DNA of 11,071 nucleotides from a virus (IMGVR_UViG_2778261676_000005); one strand, 5' to 3'. Shown: positions 1 through 8,451, counted from the first letter of the stretch. The notes: generated by a model not told the origin, from the letters alone. Numbers and translations are program-made.

Positions 1-1053
1 TTACGGGGTAATGCCAACCGCTGCCGCCACTTTGTCGCCACTTGGCAGCGTTGCCAGAGGATTGAAACGGAGCGCCGTTTCCAGATGATCCGGTGCCAGA
101 TGAGCGTAACGCATAGTCATTTTTATATCGTGATGTCCGAGGATTTTTTGCAAAGCAAGGATATTTCCACCCGACATCATGAAATGCGCCGCAAACGTAT
201 GGCGCAGAACGTGTGTCAGTTGACCGCGAGGGAGCACGATTGACGTTTTTTCCATCACGGATAAAAATTGAAAATAGCAGTCTGTGAAGAAATTGAACCC
301 ATCAAGCGCCATGATCTCTTCATAAAGCTCTTTACTGATAGGGATGCTTCTGTTTTTCTTCCCCTTCGTTCTTACAAAGGTAATTCGGTATTTAGTCACC
401 TGTGATCGGGTAAGGTTTATTGCTTCTCGCCAGCGTGCGCCTGTGCTTAAGCATATCTTGACTACCAGTGCCAGAATTGGGTCCTGACGTTTGCAATCAG
501 CCAGCAGTTCAACAATCTGCTCATGGGTAAGCCATGCCATCTCTTTTTCTGCGATGGTGAATTTTCGCATGTTCTCCAGTGGGTTTGGATACGACCATTC
601 GCCCAGGCGGGATAGTTCGCTAAAAACACTACTTAGATAGCTTTGCTCCAGGTTAATGGTGACCGGGCTTGCTCCTTTCTTCCATTTCTCGCTGAAGTAG
701 ATCTCACCTGTCAGGCGTTTATCTCGATAGTGGGCAAACATTTTAGAGGTGAGATCGGTTGCAAGGGGATTGCCCAGAGCGTCAACCATCAACAGCAATT
801 TATCATAGACATGCTGCCCAGCGGTTAGAGATTTACCATGTAGTTTGAACCATAGCTCAACCACGTCTTTCAGTGTTCGACGATCCACTGATTCTCCCAG
901 CCAGGGCTTTGCTTCGGTTTCTTCCATCGTATGGCGCTCAAAAGCCAGAGCTTCGCCTTTGGTGGCGAATTGTTTACGCACACGACGCCCACTACGTCCG
1001 GCGGGGTAACATTCGCAAAGCCATTTTCCTGTGGTGAGTTTTCGTACTGCCAT
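1..1053 (-). CDS. int: Tyrosine recombinase / phage integrase, P2-186 family
   Basis: The 376-aa ORF resembles P2 integrase along its length, including the C-terminal catalytic region (..HVLRHTFAAHFMMSGGNILALQKILGH..MTMRYAHL). Start placed at ATG 1053 (MAVRKLTTGKW) because GGAGGG lies 7 nt upstream; the ORF-track start at 1131 is probably an upstream extension. Stop is at 1-3. Confidence 0.9.
   Translation of the reverse strand: MAVRKLTTGKWLCECYPAGRSGRRVRKQFATKGEALAFERHTMEETEAKPWLGESVDRRTLKDVVELWFKLHGKSLTAGQHVYDKLLLMVDALGNPLATDLTSKMFAHYRDKRLTGEIYFSEKWKKGASPVTINLEQSYLSSVFSELSRLGEWSYPNPLENMRKFTIAEKEMAWLTHEQIVELLADCKRQDPILALVVKICLSTGARWREAINLTRSQVTKYRITFVRTKGKKNRSIPISKELYEEIMALDGFNFFTDCYFQFLSVMEKTSIVLPRGQLTHVLRHTFAAHFMMSGGNILALQKILGHHDIKMTMRYAHLAPDHLETALRFNPLATLPSGDKVAAAVGITP
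19..40. repeat. Left copy of 22-bp direct repeat cgctgccgccaYtttgtcgcca; candidate attL core
   Basis: Matches 8217-8238 at 21 of 22 positions (c versus t at position 12). It lies in the last codons of int; the other copy abuts the ogr stop, where P2-type attP is expected. Confidence 0.6.
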
Positions 1054-1239
1054 AAAAAATGCCCTCCAATAGAGAGCATTTTTACTGTATGTATAACCAG
1101 TGTCAATGTATGAAATCCTGCGACCATACATCTCACTGAAGCCATAATGAAGTTGGCTATTTTTTGCTATGTGAGTATGTGACTTTTGCGGTTAGCCTGC
1201 GGCTCATTGTTATATTAGGCGTAGATATAAAAGCAAAAT

Positions 1240-1431
1240 TTATCGCGAGTTTTTAGTACAGATTTTTTTTGATTTACTAATAGTTCCATCATTGCAAACG
1301 AACTTTCCATCGGAGGTACAGTGAGAGACACCTCCCTTTTTCCCAGAACAAGGGTAATTTTTAGCATAGGTAGTTAGTGGGTTTAATAACAAAGAGCATG
1401 ATAAAACCACAAAAAATACCTTACCAAGCAT
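1240..1431 (-). CDS. Small secreted cysteine- and lysine-rich protein (63 aa), function unknown
   Basis: Hydrophobic N-terminus with a likely signal-peptidase site after ..TYA; mature part ~40 aa with 4 Cys. Strong SD (GGGAGGAAA) directly after the cI stop, so probably co-translated with cI. Region is visibly AT-rich. Confidence 0.55.
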
Positions 1432-1446
1432 AGTTTCCTCCCGGTA

Positions 1447-2016
1447 TTACCTAACGTACTTAATTGTTAAACTTATAATTTTCCCAATTATTTCAACATC
1501 TTCTATCTTGCACTCGAAGGCTCTGTTTCCACCTTCAACGAAGATTCTTCCACCGGGTAAACGAGTAATGTCGCGGATTGTTATTTCGCCATCAATACTT
1601 ATTACCCATTTACCGTCACGTATATCATCAAATTCTTTATCACAAATAAATTCAGAATTGTTATCTGTGATGACAAAAGGTTTTTTAAACGTAGAGGGTA
1701 GAAATCCCTTATCAAAAATATAAAAACCGTCTTCACGCAAGGCACCATCAGATAATACATATTTAGCAACTTCCATAGTATTTGTATTACCTGAAGTTTG
1801 CTTTGAACCATGTCCGGTTGTGAGCCAATTAAGCGAGGTGCCCGTTTCAAGGGCGCACTGGATTACCCATTCTGCTGGGAATGAGTCACGCATGTAGCGT
1901 GTGGCGAGTGTACTTTTAGAGATTCCTAAATGATCGCACAACGCCTGTCGAGTTTTGAATCCATAAGCTTCTACCATGCGCTCTATAGCGCCTCGTCCGC
2001 CTTTCTCCAAATTCAT
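1447..2016 (-). CDS. cI: CI-type prophage repressor (phage 186 CI family: N-terminal HTH plus C-terminal domain)
   Basis: N-terminus AIERMVEAYGFKTRQALCDHLGISKSTLATRYMRDSFP is typical of the 186 CI HTH domain; ~190 aa as in 186 CI. Divergent from the early operon. ATG 2016 preferred (GGAG 5 nt upstream) over the GTG at 2022 used by the track. Confidence 0.8.
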   Translation of the reverse strand: MNLEKGGRGAIERMVEAYGFKTRQALCDHLGISKSTLATRYMRDSFPAEWVIQCALETGTSLNWLTTGHGSKQTSGNTNTMEVAKYVLSDGALREDGFYIFDKGFLPSTFKKPFVITDNNSEFICDKEFDDIRDGKWVISIDGEITIRDITRLPGGRIFVEGGNRAFECKIEDVEIIGKIISLTIKYVR

Positions 2017-2040
2017 GGTCACTCCAAGTGAACTTTTATC

Positions 2041-2069
2041 TTGACGATTTCACTGTGCGATCGTATGTT
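2041..2069 (+). promoter_or_regulatory. Candidate sigma70 early lytic promoter (pR-like): TTGACG-N17-TATGTT
   Basis: -35 TTGACG at 2041-2046, 17-nt spacer, -10 TATGTT at 2064-2069, pointing at apl/cII. Flanked by inverted hexamers GTGAAC (2030-2035) and GTTCAC (2086-2091) and by two GATC sites. Confidence 0.4.
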
Positions 2070-2141
2070 TATGGTGTTCACAAAATACAAACGATCCGTA
2101 TTCGTCCTGATTAATCATCATTAAACGAGGAATGTTGCATC

Positions 2142-2363
2142 ATGAGACCTAACATTTCAATCACTCTTACCACGCCTCATGTGACTATTGAACGCTATAG
2201 CGAGCTGACAGGGCTGTCCATCGATACCATCAATGACATGTTGGCTGACGGACGCCTTATCCGTCACCGTCTGCGCAAAGATAAAAAACGTGAAAAAGTG
2301 ATGATCAACATAGCAGCCATGACCGTTGATGCGCTTTCAGAATGCAATCTAAACCTTAATTAG
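2142..2363 (+). CDS. apl: Apl/Cox-like small DNA-binding protein (excision control / repressor of lysogenic promoter), assigned by position
   Basis: First gene of the rightward operon opposite cI, 73 aa, basic C-terminus, GAGGAA upstream. Assignment rests on position in the 186-type switch and size, not on recognised sequence motifs. Confidence 0.5.
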
Positions 2364-2395
2364 TTCGATTCTGAAATACATCAGAGGCATTGACC

Positions 2396-2905
2396 ATGTT
2401 TGATTACCAAGTTTCCAAACATCCACATTTTGATGAAGCCTGTCGTGCATTCGCATTGCGCCACAACCTAGTGCAACTGGCAGAACGTGCAGGCATGAAT
2501 GTGCAGATTCTGCGGAACAAGCTGAACCCAGCTCAACCTCATTTATTAACCGCACCAGAAATCTGGTTGCTTACCGATCTGACTGAAGATTCAACGCTGG
2601 TAGATGGCTTTCTGGCACAGATTCACTGCCTGCCATGTGTACCGATTAATGAGGTGGCAAAAGAGAAACTGCCGCATTACGTCATGAGTGCAACTGCAGA
2701 GATAGGGCGTGTCGCGGCAGGTGCGGTTTCTGGCGATGTAAAAACCAGTGCAGGCCGTCGTGATGCGATCAGCAGCATTAACTCTGTTACACGACTGATG
2801 GCGCTGGCTGCTGTTTCATTGCAGGCCCGTTTACAGGCTAATCCTGCGATGGCGAGTGCAGTTGATACCGTGACTGGCCTCGGTGCTTCATTCGGTTTGC
2901 TGTGA
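2396..2905 (+). CDS. cII: CII-like lysogeny establishment regulator (phage 186 CII family)
   Basis: Resembles 186 CII from the second Met ([20 protein letters not shown]..), and is 169 aa from that Met, the same length as 186 CII. AGAGG lies 8 nt upstream of ATG 2396. Confidence 0.8.
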
Positions 2906-2912
2906 GGTGCTT

Positions 2913-3113
2913 ATGCTGACGAAAGAACCATCATTTGCATCGCTGCTGGTAAAACAAAGTCCGGCAATGCACTACGGTCACGGCTGGATCATGGGTGAGG
3001 ATGGTAAACGCTGGCATCCGTGCCGTTCACAAGATGAATTGCTGGCAGAACTATCTACGAAAAAACGGGGGAACAAATGGCTATTGAAGGCGCTGCGGCG
3101 ACTGTTCCATTAA
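2913..3113 (+). CDS. Small early protein, unknown function (positional equivalent of 186 fil)
   Basis: ATG 2913 preceded by GTGAGGTG; 66 aa; follows cII in the same operon. No motif recognised. Confidence 0.45.
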   Translation: MLTKEPSFASLLVKQSPAMHYGHGWIMGEDGKRWHPCRSQDELLAELSTKKRGNKWLLKALRRLFH

Positions 3114-3418
3114 GACCCGGTGAACGCCTGAATGGACTTAATCATATTGCGGAGTTAAGGGCGAAAGTTTTTGGTTTGAATATTGAGTCAGAGCTTGAGC
3201 GGTTTATTAAAGATATGCGTGATCCTCGGGATATCAATAATGAACAAAATAAACGGGCACTGGCTGCCATATTCTTTATGGCAAAAATTCCAGCTGAACG
3301 TCATAGCATCAGCATTAATGAGCTGACCACTGACGAAAAGCGGGAGTTGATTAAAGCAATGAATCATTTTCGTGCAGTGGTGAGCTTATTTCCCAGACGG
3401 CTAACCATGCCGAATTAA
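3077..3418 (+). CDS. Early protein, unknown function (113 aa)
   Basis: ATG 3077 preceded by GGGGGAA; overlaps the upstream ORF by 37 nt in another frame. No motif recognised. Confidence 0.45.
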   Translation: MAIEGAAATVPLRPGERLNGLNHIAELRAKVFGLNIESELERFIKDMRDPRDINNEQNKRALAAIFFMAKIPAERHSISINELTTDEKRELIKAMNHFRAVVSLFPRRLTMPN

Positions 3419-3485
3419 CCAACTAATGAAATTAATGGCGTAAACCCGCCGGGCATCCCTTTATCTAAATTCAGGAGAATTGCTT

Positions 3486-3719
3486 ATGCGTAATATTGAA
3501 ACCCTCACGACCAAAACCGGACCGGATGATGCAGGTCTTAATCTTTTACTGACAGAAGCTCGTCTGGAAGAACGCCGGGCAAGGGCTGAAGCAATGGCTG
3601 CTCGCCTCGATAGCCTGGCGTGTCATATCACCTCCCGCCAGCTAAACCACGTCGAAGCGGCAGAACTGCTGCGTGTGACTGCTGAAGCAATCCAGAACGA
3701 AGCGCAGGAGATCCACTGA
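3486..3719 (+). CDS. Small early protein, unknown function (77 aa)
   Basis: ATG 3486 with AGGAG 8 nt upstream (the track start at 3480 is a TTG). Its stop overlaps the next start (TGATG). Confidence 0.5.
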   Translation: MRNIETLTTKTGPDDAGLNLLLTEARLEERRARAEAMAARLDSLACHITSRQLNHVEAAELLRVTAEAIQNEAQEIH

Positions 3720-3946
3720 TGGCTGATGCAATGGATCTCGTACAGCAGCGCGTTGAAGAAGAACGCCAACGCCATATCCGTGCTGCCCGTGCCAAAACGC
3801 CGGGCGTGTCCCGCGTGCTTTGCGTTGAGTGTGAAGCGCCAATTCCGCCAGCACGCCGCCGTGCCATTCCGGGTGTGCAGCTTTGCATTACCTGTCAGGA
3901 AATCGCAGAGCTGAAAGGCAAACATTACAACGGAGGTGCTGTATGA
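3719..3946 (+). CDS. TraR/DksA-family C4 zinc-finger protein (P2 orf82-like)
   Basis: CVECEAPIPPARRRAIPGVQLCITCQ is a CxxC...CxxC finger with the basic spacer typical of phage TraR-like proteins. Stop overlaps the dam start (ATGA). Confidence 0.75.
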   Translation: MADAMDLVQQRVEEERQRHIRAARAKTPGVSRVLCVECEAPIPPARRRAIPGVQLCITCQEIAELKGKHYNGGAV

Positions 3947-4800
3947 GCACCATCCTGAAATGGGCAGGAAATAAAACCGCCATAATGTCCGAACTGAAAA
4001 AGCATCTTCCTGCTGGCCCGCGACTGGTTGAACCTTTCGCGGGTTCCTGTGCAGTGATGATGGAGACGGATTATCCCAGCTATCTTGTTGCGGATATTAA
4101 TCCTGATTTAATCAACCTCTATAAAAAGGTTGCTGCTGATTGTGAGGCGTTTATATCTCGTGCCAGAGCTTTATTTGAGGAAGCAAACAGGGAGGTGGCT
4201 TATTACAACATAAGGCAGGAGTTTAATTACTCCACTGAAATTACTGATTTCATGAAAGCGGTATATTTCCTGTATCTCAATCGTCACGGTTACCGTGGTT
4301 TATGTCGCTATAACAAGAGCGGGAATTTCAACATTCCCTACGGTAATTATAAAAATCCGTATTTCCCTGAAAAAGAAATTCGCGCATTTGCAGAAAAAGC
4401 CCAGCGAGCAACGTTTATCTGCGCCAGCTTTGATGAAACGCTGGCGATGTTGAAGGCGGGGGATGTGGTGTATTGCGATCCGCCGTATGACGGTACGTTT
4501 TCCGGCTATCACACTGATGGTTTCACTGAAGATGACCAGTATCACCTGGCATCCGTTCTTGAACATCGGTCATCAGAAGGACATCCGGTCATTGTTTCTA
4601 ACAGTGACACATCCCTGATCCGTTCGTTGTATCGCAATTTCACCCACCACTACATCAAAGCAAAACGCAGCATCGGTGTGGCAGCTGGCGAGGGTAAATC
4701 AGCAACAGAAATCATTGCTGTTTCCGGGCCGCGCTGCTGGGTGGGATTTGATTATTCGCGTGGCGTGGACAGTTCTGCCGTGTACGGAGTACGTGCATGA
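3943..4800 (+). CDS. dam: DNA adenine methyltransferase, Dam-like (N6-adenine class)
   Basis: N-terminus [11 protein letters not shown] and motif FAGSCAV, plus the catalytic DPPY motif ([11 protein letters not shown]). ATG 3943 follows GGAGG; the longer track ORF from 3883 is an upstream extension. Confidence 0.85.
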
Positions 4801-6359
4801 GTCATGCCGATATGAACAACTGCTGCGGCTTTAACGAGTCTGCCGCAGCATTCTCATGGAACAGCCCGAAAAAGGCCATTAACCCTTATCTGGACCCGGC
4901 GGAAGTTGCGCCGGTTTCTGCGCTTTCAAACCTGATCACTCTGTACGCTGCCGATAACGAGCAGGAACAACTGCGCCGCGAGGCACTGAGTGATCAGGTC
5001 TGGGAGCGTTATTTCTTTAATGAATCCCGTGATCCTGTCCAGCGCGAAATGGAGCAGGATAAGCTAATTAGCCGGGCAAAGCTGGCGCATGAGCAGCAGC
5101 GTTTTAATCCGGACATGGTCATTCTGGCGGATGTCAACGCCCAGCCTTCCCATATCAGCAAGCCGCTGATGCAACGTATTGAATACTTCAGCAGCCTGGG
5201 CAGGCCAAAGGCTTATTCCCGCTATTTACGTGAGACGATTAAGCCATGTCTGGAACGACTGGAGCATGTACGCGACAGTCAGCTATCTGCATCTTTTCGC
5301 TTTATGGCAAGCCATGAAGGGCTGGACGGCCTGCTGATCTTGCCTGAAATGAGTCAGGATCAGGTGAAACGCCTGTCCACCCTGGTAGCTGCGCATATGA
5401 GTATGTGCCTTGATGCAGCTTGTGGTGATTTGTATGCCACCGATGACGTTAAGCCAGAAGAAATCCGCAAGACATGGGAAAGGGTGGCAGCAGAAACCCT
5501 GCGACTGGATGTCATCCCACCTGCGTTTGAGCAACTCCGCCGGAAAAGAAACCGCCGTAAACCCGTGCCCTATGAACTCATTCCGGGTTCGCTGGCGCGT
5601 ATGTTGTGCGCCGACTGGTGGTATCGGAAATTATGGAAGATGCGTTGCGAATGGCGGGAAGAGCAGTTGCGCGCTGTCTGCCTGGTCAGCAAAAAAGCAT
5701 CTCCCTATGTCAGCTATGAAGCTGTGATGCATAAACGTGAGCAGCGCCGTAAGTCGCTGGAGTTTTTTCGTTCTCATGAACTGGTGAACGAAGATGGCGA
5801 CACGCTGGATATGGAAGACGTGGTAAACGCCAGCAGCAGCAACCCTGCGCATCGCCGCAATGAGATGATGGCCTGTGTTAAAGGTCTGGAGCTTATCGCG
5901 GAAATGCGCGGTGACTGCGCCGTTTTCTACACCATCACCTGTCCGTCACGTTTCCATTCCACGCTAAATAACGGCAGGCCCAACCCGACTTGGACAAATG
6001 CGACGGTAAGACAAAGCAGTGATTATCTGGTCGGCATGTTTGCTGCATTTCGTAAGGCGATGTACAAAGCCGGATTGCGCTGGTATGGCGTGCGGGTGGC
6101 TGAGCCGCATCATGACGGTACAGTTCACTGGCACCTGTTGTGTTTTATGCGCAAAAAAGATCGCCGCGCCATTACTGCTTTGTTGCGTAAGTTTGCCATT
6201 CGTGAAGACCGTGAGGAGCTGGGTAATAACACAGGACCACGCTTTAAGTCTGAGCTGATACCGGGGAAGTGCAGGCCGTGGAGCTTGTGGTGCGTGGACG
6301 TCACAAAGAAGTGGATTCCGGCGAGTGGAAGACGGGCGAAAGCAACACCACCAAAGTGA
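4797..6359 (+). pseudogene. A: Replication initiation protein gpA (rolling-circle HUH endonuclease), 3'-truncated
   Basis: Resembles P2 gpA through the HUH motif ([16 protein letters not shown]). The ORF then ends after a short tail that is the out-of-frame reading of the tail-tube-like fragment. At 520 aa it is short of the ~760 aa I recall for P2 gpA. Confidence 0.7.
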
Positions 6360-6490
6360 CCAGTACCAACAGCTACGCGAAGCTGACCATCAATGGTGAG
6401 GTGCTCTATGAACTGGACCTTATCAACATGGTGGAAATTGTGGACGGTGTGGACCTGATGGAAGCGCACCGCAACGCCCTCGGCCTCTGA
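6263..6490 (+). pseudogene. C-terminal fragment of a tail tube (gpFII-like) gene lacking its 5' part
   Basis: Frame-2 translation ..[69 protein letters not shown] resembles tail-tube C-termini and sits directly upstream of E, where FII lies in P2. No plausible start or N-terminal region. Confidence 0.45.
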
Positions 6491-6544
6491 TGTATCTGAA
6501 CGGCGCGGGATACCGCGCCAGAACCCAATTTACAGGACAACAAA

Positions 6545-6847
6545 ATGAGCGATAAGCAGACTGAAAAGACCATTCAACTGGATACCCCCATCATGCGCGG
6601 TAAAACAGAAATTACCGAAATTGTGTTGCGTAAACCGCAGTCTGGTGCGCTGCGCGGCACACGCCTGCAGGCCATTATGGATATGGATGTGAACGCGATG
6701 ATGACCGTGATCCCCCGCATCTCCAGTCCGGCACTGACTGCACAGGAAATCGCAGAGATGGACCCGGCAGATCTCACCGCTATGTCGGTTGAGGTTGTCA
6801 CTTTTTTGTTGAAGAAGTCGGTGCTTGCCGGTTTACCGACAGCCTGA
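6545..6847 (+). CDS. E: Tail assembly chaperone gpE
   Basis: 100-aa protein with gpE-like sequence (TIQLDTPIMRGKTEITEIVLRKPQSGALRG); slippery heptamer TTTTTTG near the 3' end; immediately upstream of the tape-measure start. Confidence 0.75.
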   Translation: MSDKQTEKTIQLDTPIMRGKTEITEIVLRKPQSGALRGTRLQAIMDMDVNAMMTVIPRISSPALTAQEIAEMDPADLTAMSVEVVTFLLKKSVLAGLPTA

Positions 6848-6981
6848 CGGTTGACGATCTGGTGGCAGATATCGCCACCATTTTTCACTGGCCGCCATCC
6901 GTTACTGACGTTATGCCGCTGACCGAAGTGCTGGAATGGCGGTATAAAGCGATTCAGAGATGCGGGGCCAACGATGAGTGA
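6545..6981 (+). CDS. gpE+E' frameshift fusion (programmed -1 frameshift, P2 E/E' and lambda G/GT type)
   Basis: From T TTT TTG at 6802-6808 the -1 frame is open to TGA at 6979-6981, reading ..GACRFTDSLTVDDLVADIATIFHWPPSVTDVMPLTEVLEWRYKAIQRCGANDE. It ends overlapping the T start at 6974, as in P2. Confidence 0.6.
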
Positions 6982-7549
6982 TAACAACCTGCGCCTGCAG
7001 GTCATTCTTAATGCGGTTGACAAACTCACCCGCCCATTCCGTGCTGCACAGGCCAGTTCGAAAGAGCTGGCTGGCGCAATCAGAAACTCCCGTGACGCAT
7101 TAAAGCAACTCAATCAGGCGGGTAACAGCCTGGAAAAATTTCGCAAGCTGCAGGCTGATAACAAGAAGTTAGGCGACAGGCTGAACTATGCCAGACAGAA
7201 GGCTAATTTGCTTAGCTCTGAGCTGGAGGCGATGGAGCAACCATCACAAAGGCATTTTGTGGCTTTAGGTCGGCAAACGCTGGCAGTCCAACGCCTGGAA
7301 GAACAACAAAAATATTTGCAGAAGCAAACGGCGCTTGTGCGTGCTGAACTGTACCGGGCGGGAATTTCTGCGAAAGATGATGCGGGAGCAACTGCCCGTT
7401 TAGCCCGTGAAACATCACGTTATAACCAGGAACTTTCGAAACAGGAGGCGCGGCTGAAGCGACTGGGGGAAGCTCAGCGCAGGATGAATGCAGCGCGTGC
7501 CAGTTACCCGCGAACCCGCGAAGAAAGAAAGCACTACGGTGAAGCGTAA
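6974..7549 (+). pseudogene. T: Tail tape measure protein gpT, N-terminal fragment (~170 aa of an expected ~800)
   Basis: N-terminus MSDNNLRLQVILNAVDKLTRPF with coiled-coil sequence is typical of P2-family tape measure proteins. The ORF ends after 191 aa and overlaps the gpD-fragment frame. Confidence 0.7.
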
Positions 7550-7907
7550 GCGCAGGACTAAGAAGCAGAAGAAAGAGCCGGAAGCGAAGCAGGGCGATTA
7601 CCTGGTGGGGACGGATGAAAACGTGCTGGTACTTAATCGCACTTATGCCAACCGGAGCAACGCCGAACGAGCGGCAAAAATGCAGTGGGAACGCCTGCAA
7701 CGCGGCGTTGCGTCATTCTCGCTACAACTGGCGGAAGGGCGGGCAGATCTCTACACGGAAATGCCAGTGAAAGTCAGTGGCTTTAAACAGCCGATAGATG
7801 ATGCGGAATGGACCATTACGACTCTGACACATACTGTCAGCCCGGATAACGGTTTTACAACCAGTATTGAACTCGAAGTGAAGATTGATGATTTCGAAAT
7901 GGAATGA
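7488..7907 (+). pseudogene. D: Tail protein gpD, C-terminal fragment
   Basis: ..YANRSNAERAAKMQWERLQRGVASFSLQLAEGRADLYTEMPVKVSGFKQPIDDAEWTITTLTHTVSPDNGFTTSIELEVK matches the C-terminal ~120 aa of P2 gpD. No N-terminal two thirds and no gpU gene. Sits directly upstream of ogr as in P2. Confidence 0.8.
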
Positions 7908-7997
7908 TTCTTCGCAATGGAGAACTTTTAAGTTTGCAAAATGGAATAATAAGGTATCATTATTGTGAATTTAGCAAAAATGGGGAGAACTCGAAAA

Positions 7998-8216
7998 ATG
8001 ATGATTTGCCCACTGTGTGGAAGTGCCGCCCATACTCGCAGCAGTTTTCAGGTATCTTCATTGACCAAAGAGCGTTACAACCAGTGCCAGAACATTAACT
8101 GCAGCCATACTTTTGTTACCCATGAAACTTTTGTTCGTTCGATTGCAACGCCAAAAGAGTCAAATCCGGTTCAGCCGCATCCAATGAAATCAGGACAGGT
8201 GGCGCTCTCTCTTTGA
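7998..8216 (+). CDS. ogr: Late gene transcription activator Ogr (zinc finger)
   Basis: MMICPLCGSAAHTRSS...ERYNQCQNINCSHTF...PHPMKSGQ resembles P2 Ogr (Cys4 finger); 72 aa from ATG 7998, as in P2. GGGGAGAA upstream. Confidence 0.9.
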   Translation: MMICPLCGSAAHTRSSFQVSSLTKERYNQCQNINCSHTFVTHETFVRSIATPKESNPVQPHPMKSGQVALSL

Positions 8217-8238
8217 CGCTGCCGCCATTTTGTCGCCA
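8217..8238. repeat. Right copy of the 22-bp direct repeat; candidate attR core
   Basis: cgctgccgccattttgtcgcca starts on the nucleotide after the ogr stop and matches 19-40 with one mismatch. Confidence 0.6.
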
Positions 8239-8296
8239 TCGTTAAAAAGCAGTGCTTCTAACATCATGATTTTAAAAGGCATAAATTTCAGACAAC

Positions 8297-8339
8297 AAAA
8301 AACCCATCAACCTTGAACCGAAATGGCGGGGTTGATGGG
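8297..8339 (-). terminator. Candidate intrinsic terminator for ybjL (read on the minus strand)
   Basis: Perfect 10-bp arms CCCATCAACC (8303-8312) and GGTTGATGGG (8330-8339), with an inner CCG/CGG pair, followed on the minus strand by a U-run (plus-strand A-run 8297-8302). About 110 nt downstream of the ybjL stop, and the loop is large, so confidence is modest. Confidence 0.35.
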
Positions 8340-8451
8340 CTCCACAAAATGGGGACATCAAAGAAAAGCAGTGGCACTAATTAAGACTGATGCCCTGCGG
8401 AAAAGTTCTGCGGTTGTGCAAAAAAATTTCATTTTCAGGGCAACTTCAGTT

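Follow-up and report, generated by a model that had tools for sequence, protein, structure and literature searches.

Does a prophage that has lost its replication and virion genes, and still carries intact regulators, owe that pattern to selection or to the way in which it was broken? The question is raised by IMGVR_UViG_2778261676_000005, a stretch of 11,071 nt (the window, in what follows) in which a sequence-only reading had seen, at positions 1 to 8238, a phage remnant that keeps a full regulatory and recombination toolkit (int, cI, apl, cII and ogr) despite its losses. Here, we identify this region as, very probably, an 8.4-kb remnant of a ~35-kb prophage of the Fels-2 group (Peduoviridae) with a CI/Apl/CII switch of the 186 type, inserted at the 3' end of rybB and reduced by two illegitimate-recombination deletions, its regulators having been kept by their position at the prophage's ends and by the youth of the deletions. 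It is an ordinary, young and private decay product, and both its prophage family and its integration hotspot are well documented. Its significance goes little further than annotation, with the occupant of the hotspot named and its exact boundaries, including the overlap with rybB, defined; it is also a clean illustration of regulatory ends outlasting the middle in decaying P2-like prophages.

Borders and deletions of the element at rybB

The whole window is identical to part of the E. coli draft contig NONG01000007.1 (GCA_002518955.1), with the int stop codon at position 1. The host genes ybjL, ybjM and grxA lie to the right of the remnant, and rcdA lies to the left, beyond the window edge. 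Between rcdA and ybjL, the element occupies the 3' end of the small RNA (sRNA) gene rybB and has a core repeat on each side: the attR core, ATAAATTTCAGACAACAAAAAACCCAT (8281-8307), repeats imperfectly, over 27 bp, the attL core found 100 bp left of int in the source contig. Phage homology ceases exactly at 8307, and the extent of 1-8238 first assigned to the element has to be widened at both ends, to 8307 on the right and to the attL core, about 100 bp outside the window, on the left. Joined to each other, the outer flanks of attL and attR reproduce the natural empty site of other genomes with 100% identity. The rybB gene itself (8294-8372, minus strand) is present at full length (Rfam RF00110, 105 bits, model positions 1-79 of 79); the att core covers its last 14 nt, comprising the 3' stem of the terminator and the U tail, and restores them. 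A hairpin at 8300-8340 was considered as a terminator for ybjL and rejected, as the Rfam match shows it to be the RybB terminator. The rybB site is an sRNA-gene integration site, analogous to transfer RNA (tRNA) or ssrA sites, and the integration of Fels-2-like phages (Felsduovirus) into it is already published (PMC10121019, PMC4048246); no tRNA genes were found in the window.

Mapping the window onto the apparently complete prophage of ATCC 8739, PhiECO2, which Nilsson et al. 2011 (PMC3448106) described together with PhiECO1 (E. coli HS) and PhiSEN1 (S. Typhi CT18), yields four colinear blocks of 96-99% identity. The window lacks 25.7 kb of PhiECO2. Deletion 1, of 22,007 bp, runs from codon 488 of A into FII and has its junction at 6257-6259, with a GAT microhomology (3 nt); deletion 2, of 3,721 bp, runs from codon 178 of T to codon 233 of D and has its junction at 7505-7506, with a TA microhomology (2 nt). 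These microhomologies are a signature of illegitimate recombination. In BLASTP comparisons with full-length proteins A, T and D align only in part, so the initial description of these three genes as broken holds; the tail-tube gene FII, which that description had passed over, is likewise truncated. The replication endonuclease gene is left as A' (4797-6359, plus strand), homologous to its relatives as far as 6259 and then running into a 33-codon out-of-frame tail; its product keeps the HUH motif (H444-W-H) and loses the catalytic Y498-IAK-Y502. Next comes 'FII, the C-terminal part of the gene for the tail tube (6260-6490, plus strand; Pfam Phage_tube positions 95-165 of 165). The tape measure gene is left with only its start, T' (6974-7549, plus strand), with 177 of 1025 codons and an out-of-frame tail, and the baseplate hub/late control gene with only codons 234-366 of 366 (133 codons), as 'D (7507-7907, plus strand).

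Deletion 1 also removed the cos region near the portal gene along with all head, lysis, baseplate, fibre and sheath genes, and the promoter regions of all four late operons are deleted. The origin of replication (ori) of 186 maps to codon 611 of A in the annotation of the 186 record, and the corresponding region here lies inside deletion 1. A functional A with its ori, cos and the late operons, which a viable phage would need, are thus missing, and what is left is no phage but a remnant of one. The initial description needs one more correction: the tail assembly chaperone genes E (6545-6847, plus strand) and E' (6862-6981, plus strand; Pfam Phage_TAC_7, PF06528) are intact, E being 99% identical to its counterpart in Escherichia phage Cartapus, and both stand without their late promoter. 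A terminator scan picked out a hairpin followed by a T run on the plus strand at 6860-6890, at the E/E' boundary, the position of the programmed frameshift in P2-like chaperone genes.

The A-portal region deleted here holds defence-type cargo of various kinds in relatives of the remnant: a TIR-domain protein in strain ACN002, a retron reverse transcriptase with its effector in BL21 and, between the tail-completion and baseplate genes of ATCC 8739, an Sll1717-family P-loop ATPase.

Why the regulatory ends remain

Gene content was established from an open reading frame listing with Pfam, PHROGs and NCBIfam scans. The genes int, cI, apl, cII and ogr are indeed intact, being uninterrupted and of full length relative to homologues in complete phages and prophages, and each is preceded by a Shine-Dalgarno sequence of the GGAG/GAGG type 5-12 nt before the start codon, as the sequence-only reading had stated. 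The early genes and ogr align end to end with their homologues in BLASTP comparisons with Klebsiella phage KP12, Escherichia phage Cartapus and 186. What is unwarranted is the word "despite". The regulators sit in the outer 3.0 kb and the outer 0.4 kb of the prophage, and in 40% of simulations two internal deletions of these sizes, placed at random, leave both ends untouched (P = 0.40); that this geometric null places internal deletions uniformly is an assumption that counts against leaning on it too heavily. The second part of the explanation is age. For int, cI, apl, cII, fil, the DUF5347 gene and the TraR-like gene, the differently deleted ACN002 remnant has counterparts of 100% identity, which leaves almost no time for point mutations to have accumulated. 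Intact regulators thus reflect end positions and young deletions, and are not evidence of selection.

The strongest competing explanation is that the remnant is a domesticated immunity island, in which cI, and perhaps int, apl and ogr as well, is under selection for protection against a phage family found at rybB in about a fifth of E. coli genomes, or in which cells that lost cI would suffer from the release of toxic early genes, fil for example, whose product belongs to a cell-division inhibitor family. The intactness of all retained early genes agrees with this idea, and so does the frequency of the locus. Among 5,426 complete E. coli genomes, the rcdA-ybjL site at rybB is empty in 4,227 and occupied in about 1,200, with rcdA-attL-int junctions in 1,062 and ogr-attR-ybjL junctions in 1,105 (~20% of genomes, both ends mostly present); the same cI region is found in 513. 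Other remnants with other deletions occupy the rybB site in L9, in ACN002 and its relatives and in BL21(DE3), and the differently deleted L9, ACN002 and BL21 remnants also keep int, cI, apl and ogr. These remnants were located using the window as the query, however, and the sample is biased toward the same retained genes. The architecture itself is private to one isolate: neither deletion junction is present in the 5,426 genomes, and a search of about 15 billion proteins (NCBI and Logan) found the exact A' and T' fusions on only 2 contigs. With the stretch from int to the TraR-like gene essentially unchanged relative to another remnant, selection has had no time to act or to become visible, and both ends would be spared by chance in about 40% of cases. 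The low ratio of nonsynonymous to synonymous differences (pN/pS 0.04-0.07 against more distant relatives) is uninformative as a test of selection, as the differences predate the deletions and reflect divergence among live phages, not decay in place. We therefore regard an immunity island maintained by selection as unlikely.

Far less probable is an assembly artefact, in which a short-read assembler collapsed a full prophage. The source is a draft assembly, and P2-like sequences recur in many E. coli genomes, conditions under which such a collapse might be suspected; the 3 and 2 nt shared at the breakpoints are far below any assembler k-mer, however, and the 188-kb contig runs into normal host flanks on both sides. 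Because breakpoints with 2-3 nt of microhomology are not a product of repeat-driven misassembly, and because both fusion proteins are recorded from Logan as well as from NCBI, we take the structure to be real. The least credible of the alternatives, a satellite-like element that is excised and then relies on a superinfecting P2-like helper for packaging or replication, a way of life that Ogr and the switch genes would serve, can point to intact Int, Apl and att sites and to an Ogr/Delta-family activator such as P4 has, but the cos region near the portal gene lay inside deletion 1, no primase or other replication function remains (A has lost its catalytic activity, and the presumed ori is gone), family scans found no sid/psu-like or other satellite genes of the kind that define P4-like elements, and all segments are colinear with an ordinary prophage.

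The immunity switch, SOS control and excision

Within the remnant, cI (1447-2016, minus strand) encodes a 189-amino-acid immunity repressor that matches Pfam Phage_CI_repr (E = 3e-33) and Phage_CI_C (E = 2e-28) over its full length. It diverges from apl and cII across a spacer of 125 nt (2017-2141), which falls in the 88-125 nt range of 186-type switches. The apl gene (2142-2363, plus strand) encodes a Cox-like excisionase and repressor of 73 amino acids, identical to the Apl of ATCC 8739; it was recognised by phrog_575 (E = 6e-31, covering amino acids 1-69), and the family scans gave no Pfam or NCBIfam match. The 169-amino-acid product of cII (2396-2905, plus strand) matches Pfam Phage_CP76 (PF06892, E = 3e-42) and is 69% identical to 186 CII, and the first 30 nt of the gene (2396-2425) contain CII half-sites, ATGTTTG-N16-CAAACAT, identical to the annotated CII site of 186. 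A promoter scan of the spacer predicts pR as TTGACG-17-TATGTT (2041-2069), with a 38-bp imperfect palindrome (2059-2096) over its -10 and +1 positions.

The immunity class of this switch can be read from its closest relatives. CI differs by a single residue (N119K) from that of PhiECO2, with which the remnant shares its spacer, apl and apl-cII junction at 100% identity. PhiECO1, PhiECO2 and PhiSEN1 form a class with CI proteins more than 96% identical and 125-nt spacers 98-100% identical (PMC3448106), and the one-residue difference in CI, together with the identical spacer and apl, places the remnant in it. Two points weigh against the working state proposed below: N119K falls in the C-terminal domain of CI, and neither pL nor the CI operators can be assigned with confidence from the spacer sequence. 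CI is 54% identical to its counterpart in KP12, 41% to that of Cartapus and only 32% to that of 186, and the pR region is unrelated to 186 pR. The remnant and 186 are therefore heteroimmune, and the immunity to superinfecting 186-type phages that had been suggested for a resident CI would not have the specificity of 186. The P2 repressor is unrelated to CI. Given this and the 32% identity to 186, spotting 186 or P2, as had been proposed, would be uninformative. Immunity conferred by CI to phages of the PhiECO1/PhiECO2/PhiSEN1 class is instead plausible; the cI immunity region was found in 0 of 50,697 phage records.

For the working state of the switch we draw on the 186 paradigm (the annotated 186 record, PMC8538670, PMC3121763). 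CI made from the lysogenic promoter would repress pR, leaving apl, cII, fil and dam silent and blocking homoimmune phages. If CI is active, the remnant would amount to a minimal immunity cassette, non-inducible and directed against a prophage family that roughly a fifth of E. coli genomes carry.

Non-inducibility in this model follows from what the first deletion removed. In the intact ATCC 8739 prophage, LexA boxes lie upstream of a split tum-like operon (a 62-amino-acid gene and a DinI-like gene), and this operon, with its LexA-box promoter, was taken by deletion 1. Tum is a LexA-controlled antirepressor, and it is split into two genes in Fels-2 and PSP3 (PMC3121763). The window contains no LexA-controlled antirepressor of this kind, which marks a secondary loss. 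The C-terminal domain of CI, for its part, scores 16.7 bits as an S24 peptidase, below the cut-off of 23.3, and is not one. With the antirepressor operon deleted and no peptidase domain in CI, DNA damage is not expected to derepress pR, and a 186-type CI is not cleaved by RecA. Induction of excision by SOS, which the sequence-only reading had put forward for detection of excised circles, is accordingly expected to fail, the antirepressor operon being inside the 22-kb deletion; SOS would at most raise Int, without excision.

A response of Int to damage is suggested by a promoter-like site upstream of int, TTGACA-17-AAAAAT (1078-1106, minus strand), which a promoter scan reports with a perfect -35. 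Between its hexamers lies a LexA box (1083-1102, minus strand), the only one left in the window, which scores 23.4 bits on a matrix of E. coli SOS boxes (95th-percentile shuffle maximum, 14.0). A plain search for CTGT-N8-ACAG gave chance-like results, and it was the position matrix that picked this one strong site. The promoter hexamers and the LexA box are identical in four prophages, those of ATCC 8739, ACN002, L9 and BL21; in L9 and BL21 a single base is substituted shortly before the ribosome-binding site of int. We propose, as a doubtful reading, that int has a LexA-repressed promoter apart from the cI operon, such that damage would yield Int without Apl, favouring integrative recombination and locking the stub in place as a non-inducible immunity cassette. 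If this were true, Int made without Apl could, for example, capture incoming relatives at attL or attR. We found no paper describing an SOS-controlled int promoter for this phage group. The dependence of the LexA-box score on this one matrix tells against our overall account of the remnant, as does the consideration that the antirepressor of a co-resident prophage could restore SOS inducibility in trans.

Whether the element can still excise had been left open, and the evidence now goes somewhat further than that, since the remnant still has Int, Apl, attL, attR and the arm sites. The integrase gene (1-1053, minus strand) encodes a P2/186-type tyrosine integrase of 350 amino acids (Pfam Int_N and Phage_integrase) that retains the catalytic residues R207, H281, R284, H307/308 and Y316 and shares 99.7% of its sequence with KP12 Int and all of it with ACN002 Int. 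Two tandem 186-type arm repeats, TGCCGCCACTT and TGTCGCCACTT, lie inside the 3' end of int (22-43, plus strand), and two more, TGCCGCCATTT and TGTCGCCATCG, lie on the ogr side (8220-8241, plus strand); the repeats on both arms match the 186-type Int arm consensus tgccGCCActt (Nilsson 2011, PMC3448106). The P2 arm site is also found inside int, at the corresponding place. Precise excision is thus genetically possible. It would require Int together with Apl, and hence derepression of pR, and the excised circle, having no ori, active A or cos, would be lost, leaving an intact rybB site restored. To the left of the window, a hairpin and the T tract of the core likely terminate the int transcript. 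Two direct repeats, AAAACAATAAGTTAG, stand between the attL core and int (source-contig locus 5130-5204), where 186 has its Apl sites.

At the other end of the remnant, ogr (7998-8216, plus strand) encodes a late-gene activator of 72 amino acids with a C4 zinc finger (Cys 4, 7, 30 and 35; Pfam Ogr_Delta), identical to the KP12 and ATCC 8739 proteins; its identity is 51% with P2 Ogr and 54% with 186 B. A promoter scan predicts a sigma-70-like promoter, TTTGCA-16-TATCAT (7933-7960, plus strand), whose -10 is the same as that of 186 pB and which has one spacer substitution relative to ATCC 8739. No late promoter is left in the remnant, and Ogr would be an orphan activator with no remaining target within it. 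That Ogr could activate the late promoters of incoming P2-like phages, as had been suggested, is a possibility; incoming P2-like phages carry their own ogr.

The ogr promoter may share a control element with the switch. The 9-mer GAACTTTTA occurs only at 7922-7930 and 2030-2038, in each case 2 nt upstream of a -35, that of the ogr promoter and that of pR, and half-sites of the GTGAAY type, resembling 186 CI sites, are found near both promoters. In 186, CI represses pB, the promoter of the homologous B gene (186 record annotation). The shared 9-mer may be an operator or an UP-like element. In KP12 the ogr promoter is virtually the same, yet CI is 54% identical and the pR region unrelated; the promoter being kept with a different repressor, the 9-mer does not track the repressor.

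The remaining early genes follow cII on the plus strand and were assigned from Pfam and PHROGs: fil (2913-3113), a DUF5347 gene (3077-3418), a DUF2732 gene (3486-3719), a TraR/DksA-like gene (3719-3946) and dam (3943-4800). All five are of full length relative to KP12 and Cartapus. Between int and cI lies a cargo gene for a YdcA-family small secreted-type protein of 63 amino acids (1240-1431, minus strand; NCBIfam NF007463, phrog_6000, PF27300), the N terminus of which is signal-like. KP12 has a 558-amino-acid ATPase in the same place, which makes the int-cI gap a cargo slot in this phage group. A PADLOC search of the window found no known defence genes besides cI, the only hits being orphan-methylase models matching Dam. 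Some segments differ in their history. The dam-A junction (4719-4913) is mosaic, ATCC 8739 and ACN002 having an extra 273-amino-acid gene there that the window, KP12 and Cartapus are without, and the int allele and the D fragment stand apart from the block from cI to the TraR-like gene (96-97% against about 100% identity).

Comparison with known systems

Coliphage 186 (Eganvirus ev186) provides the template for most of the regulatory logic proposed here. Like the remnant, it has cI facing apl and cII, CII with its binding site, Fil, DUF2732 and DksA-like genes, the same Int arm-repeat consensus and a B/Ogr gene that adjoins attP; intact relatives of the remnant also share with it a LexA-controlled antirepressor for SOS induction. 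It differs in its CI (32% identical) and in an Apl that can barely be aligned, which sets the two apart as heteroimmune, and it integrates in a tRNA-Ile gene. In 186, moreover, int directly follows cI, whereas the remnant has a cargo gene and a separate LexA-box promoter before int.

Cryptic P2 remnants of E. coli K-12 and B, reportedly described by Slettan et al. in 1992, are said to have a functional ogr that complements ogr-defective P2. Unlike the Ogr of the present remnant, at 51% identity to that of P2, their ogr is reportedly near-identical to P2 ogr.

A further parallel in E. coli B is the defective P2-like prophage of BL21(DE3), which occupies the same locus and has a cI region 97% identical to that of the remnant, an identical Ogr protein and ogr DNA at 99.5% identity. 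It too keeps int, the 63-amino-acid gene, cI, apl and ogr, and has lost replication and several virion genes. The two elements were broken differently, however: the BL21(DE3) deletions run from cII' to 'A, from scaffold' to 'lysozyme and from invertase' to 'D, and at about 21 kb that prophage retains its retron and many tail genes.

Intact occupants of the site are known as well. Felsduovirus prophages are integrated, like the remnant, at the rybB 3' end (hotspot #29, Hochhauser et al. 2023, PMC10121019; Kpn38RybB, Hudson et al. 2014, PMC4048246). They are described as whole and as carrying defence systems, whereas the cargo hotspots of the remnant are deleted. The nearest of the prophages with which we compared the remnant in detail is PhiECO2, which shares its insertion site, immunity class, Ogr protein and gene order, with 96-99% DNA identity in all retained segments. 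It is distinguished by being an apparently complete 35-kb prophage, by an int allele 96.7% identical to that of the remnant and by the mosaic dam-A junction with its extra gene.

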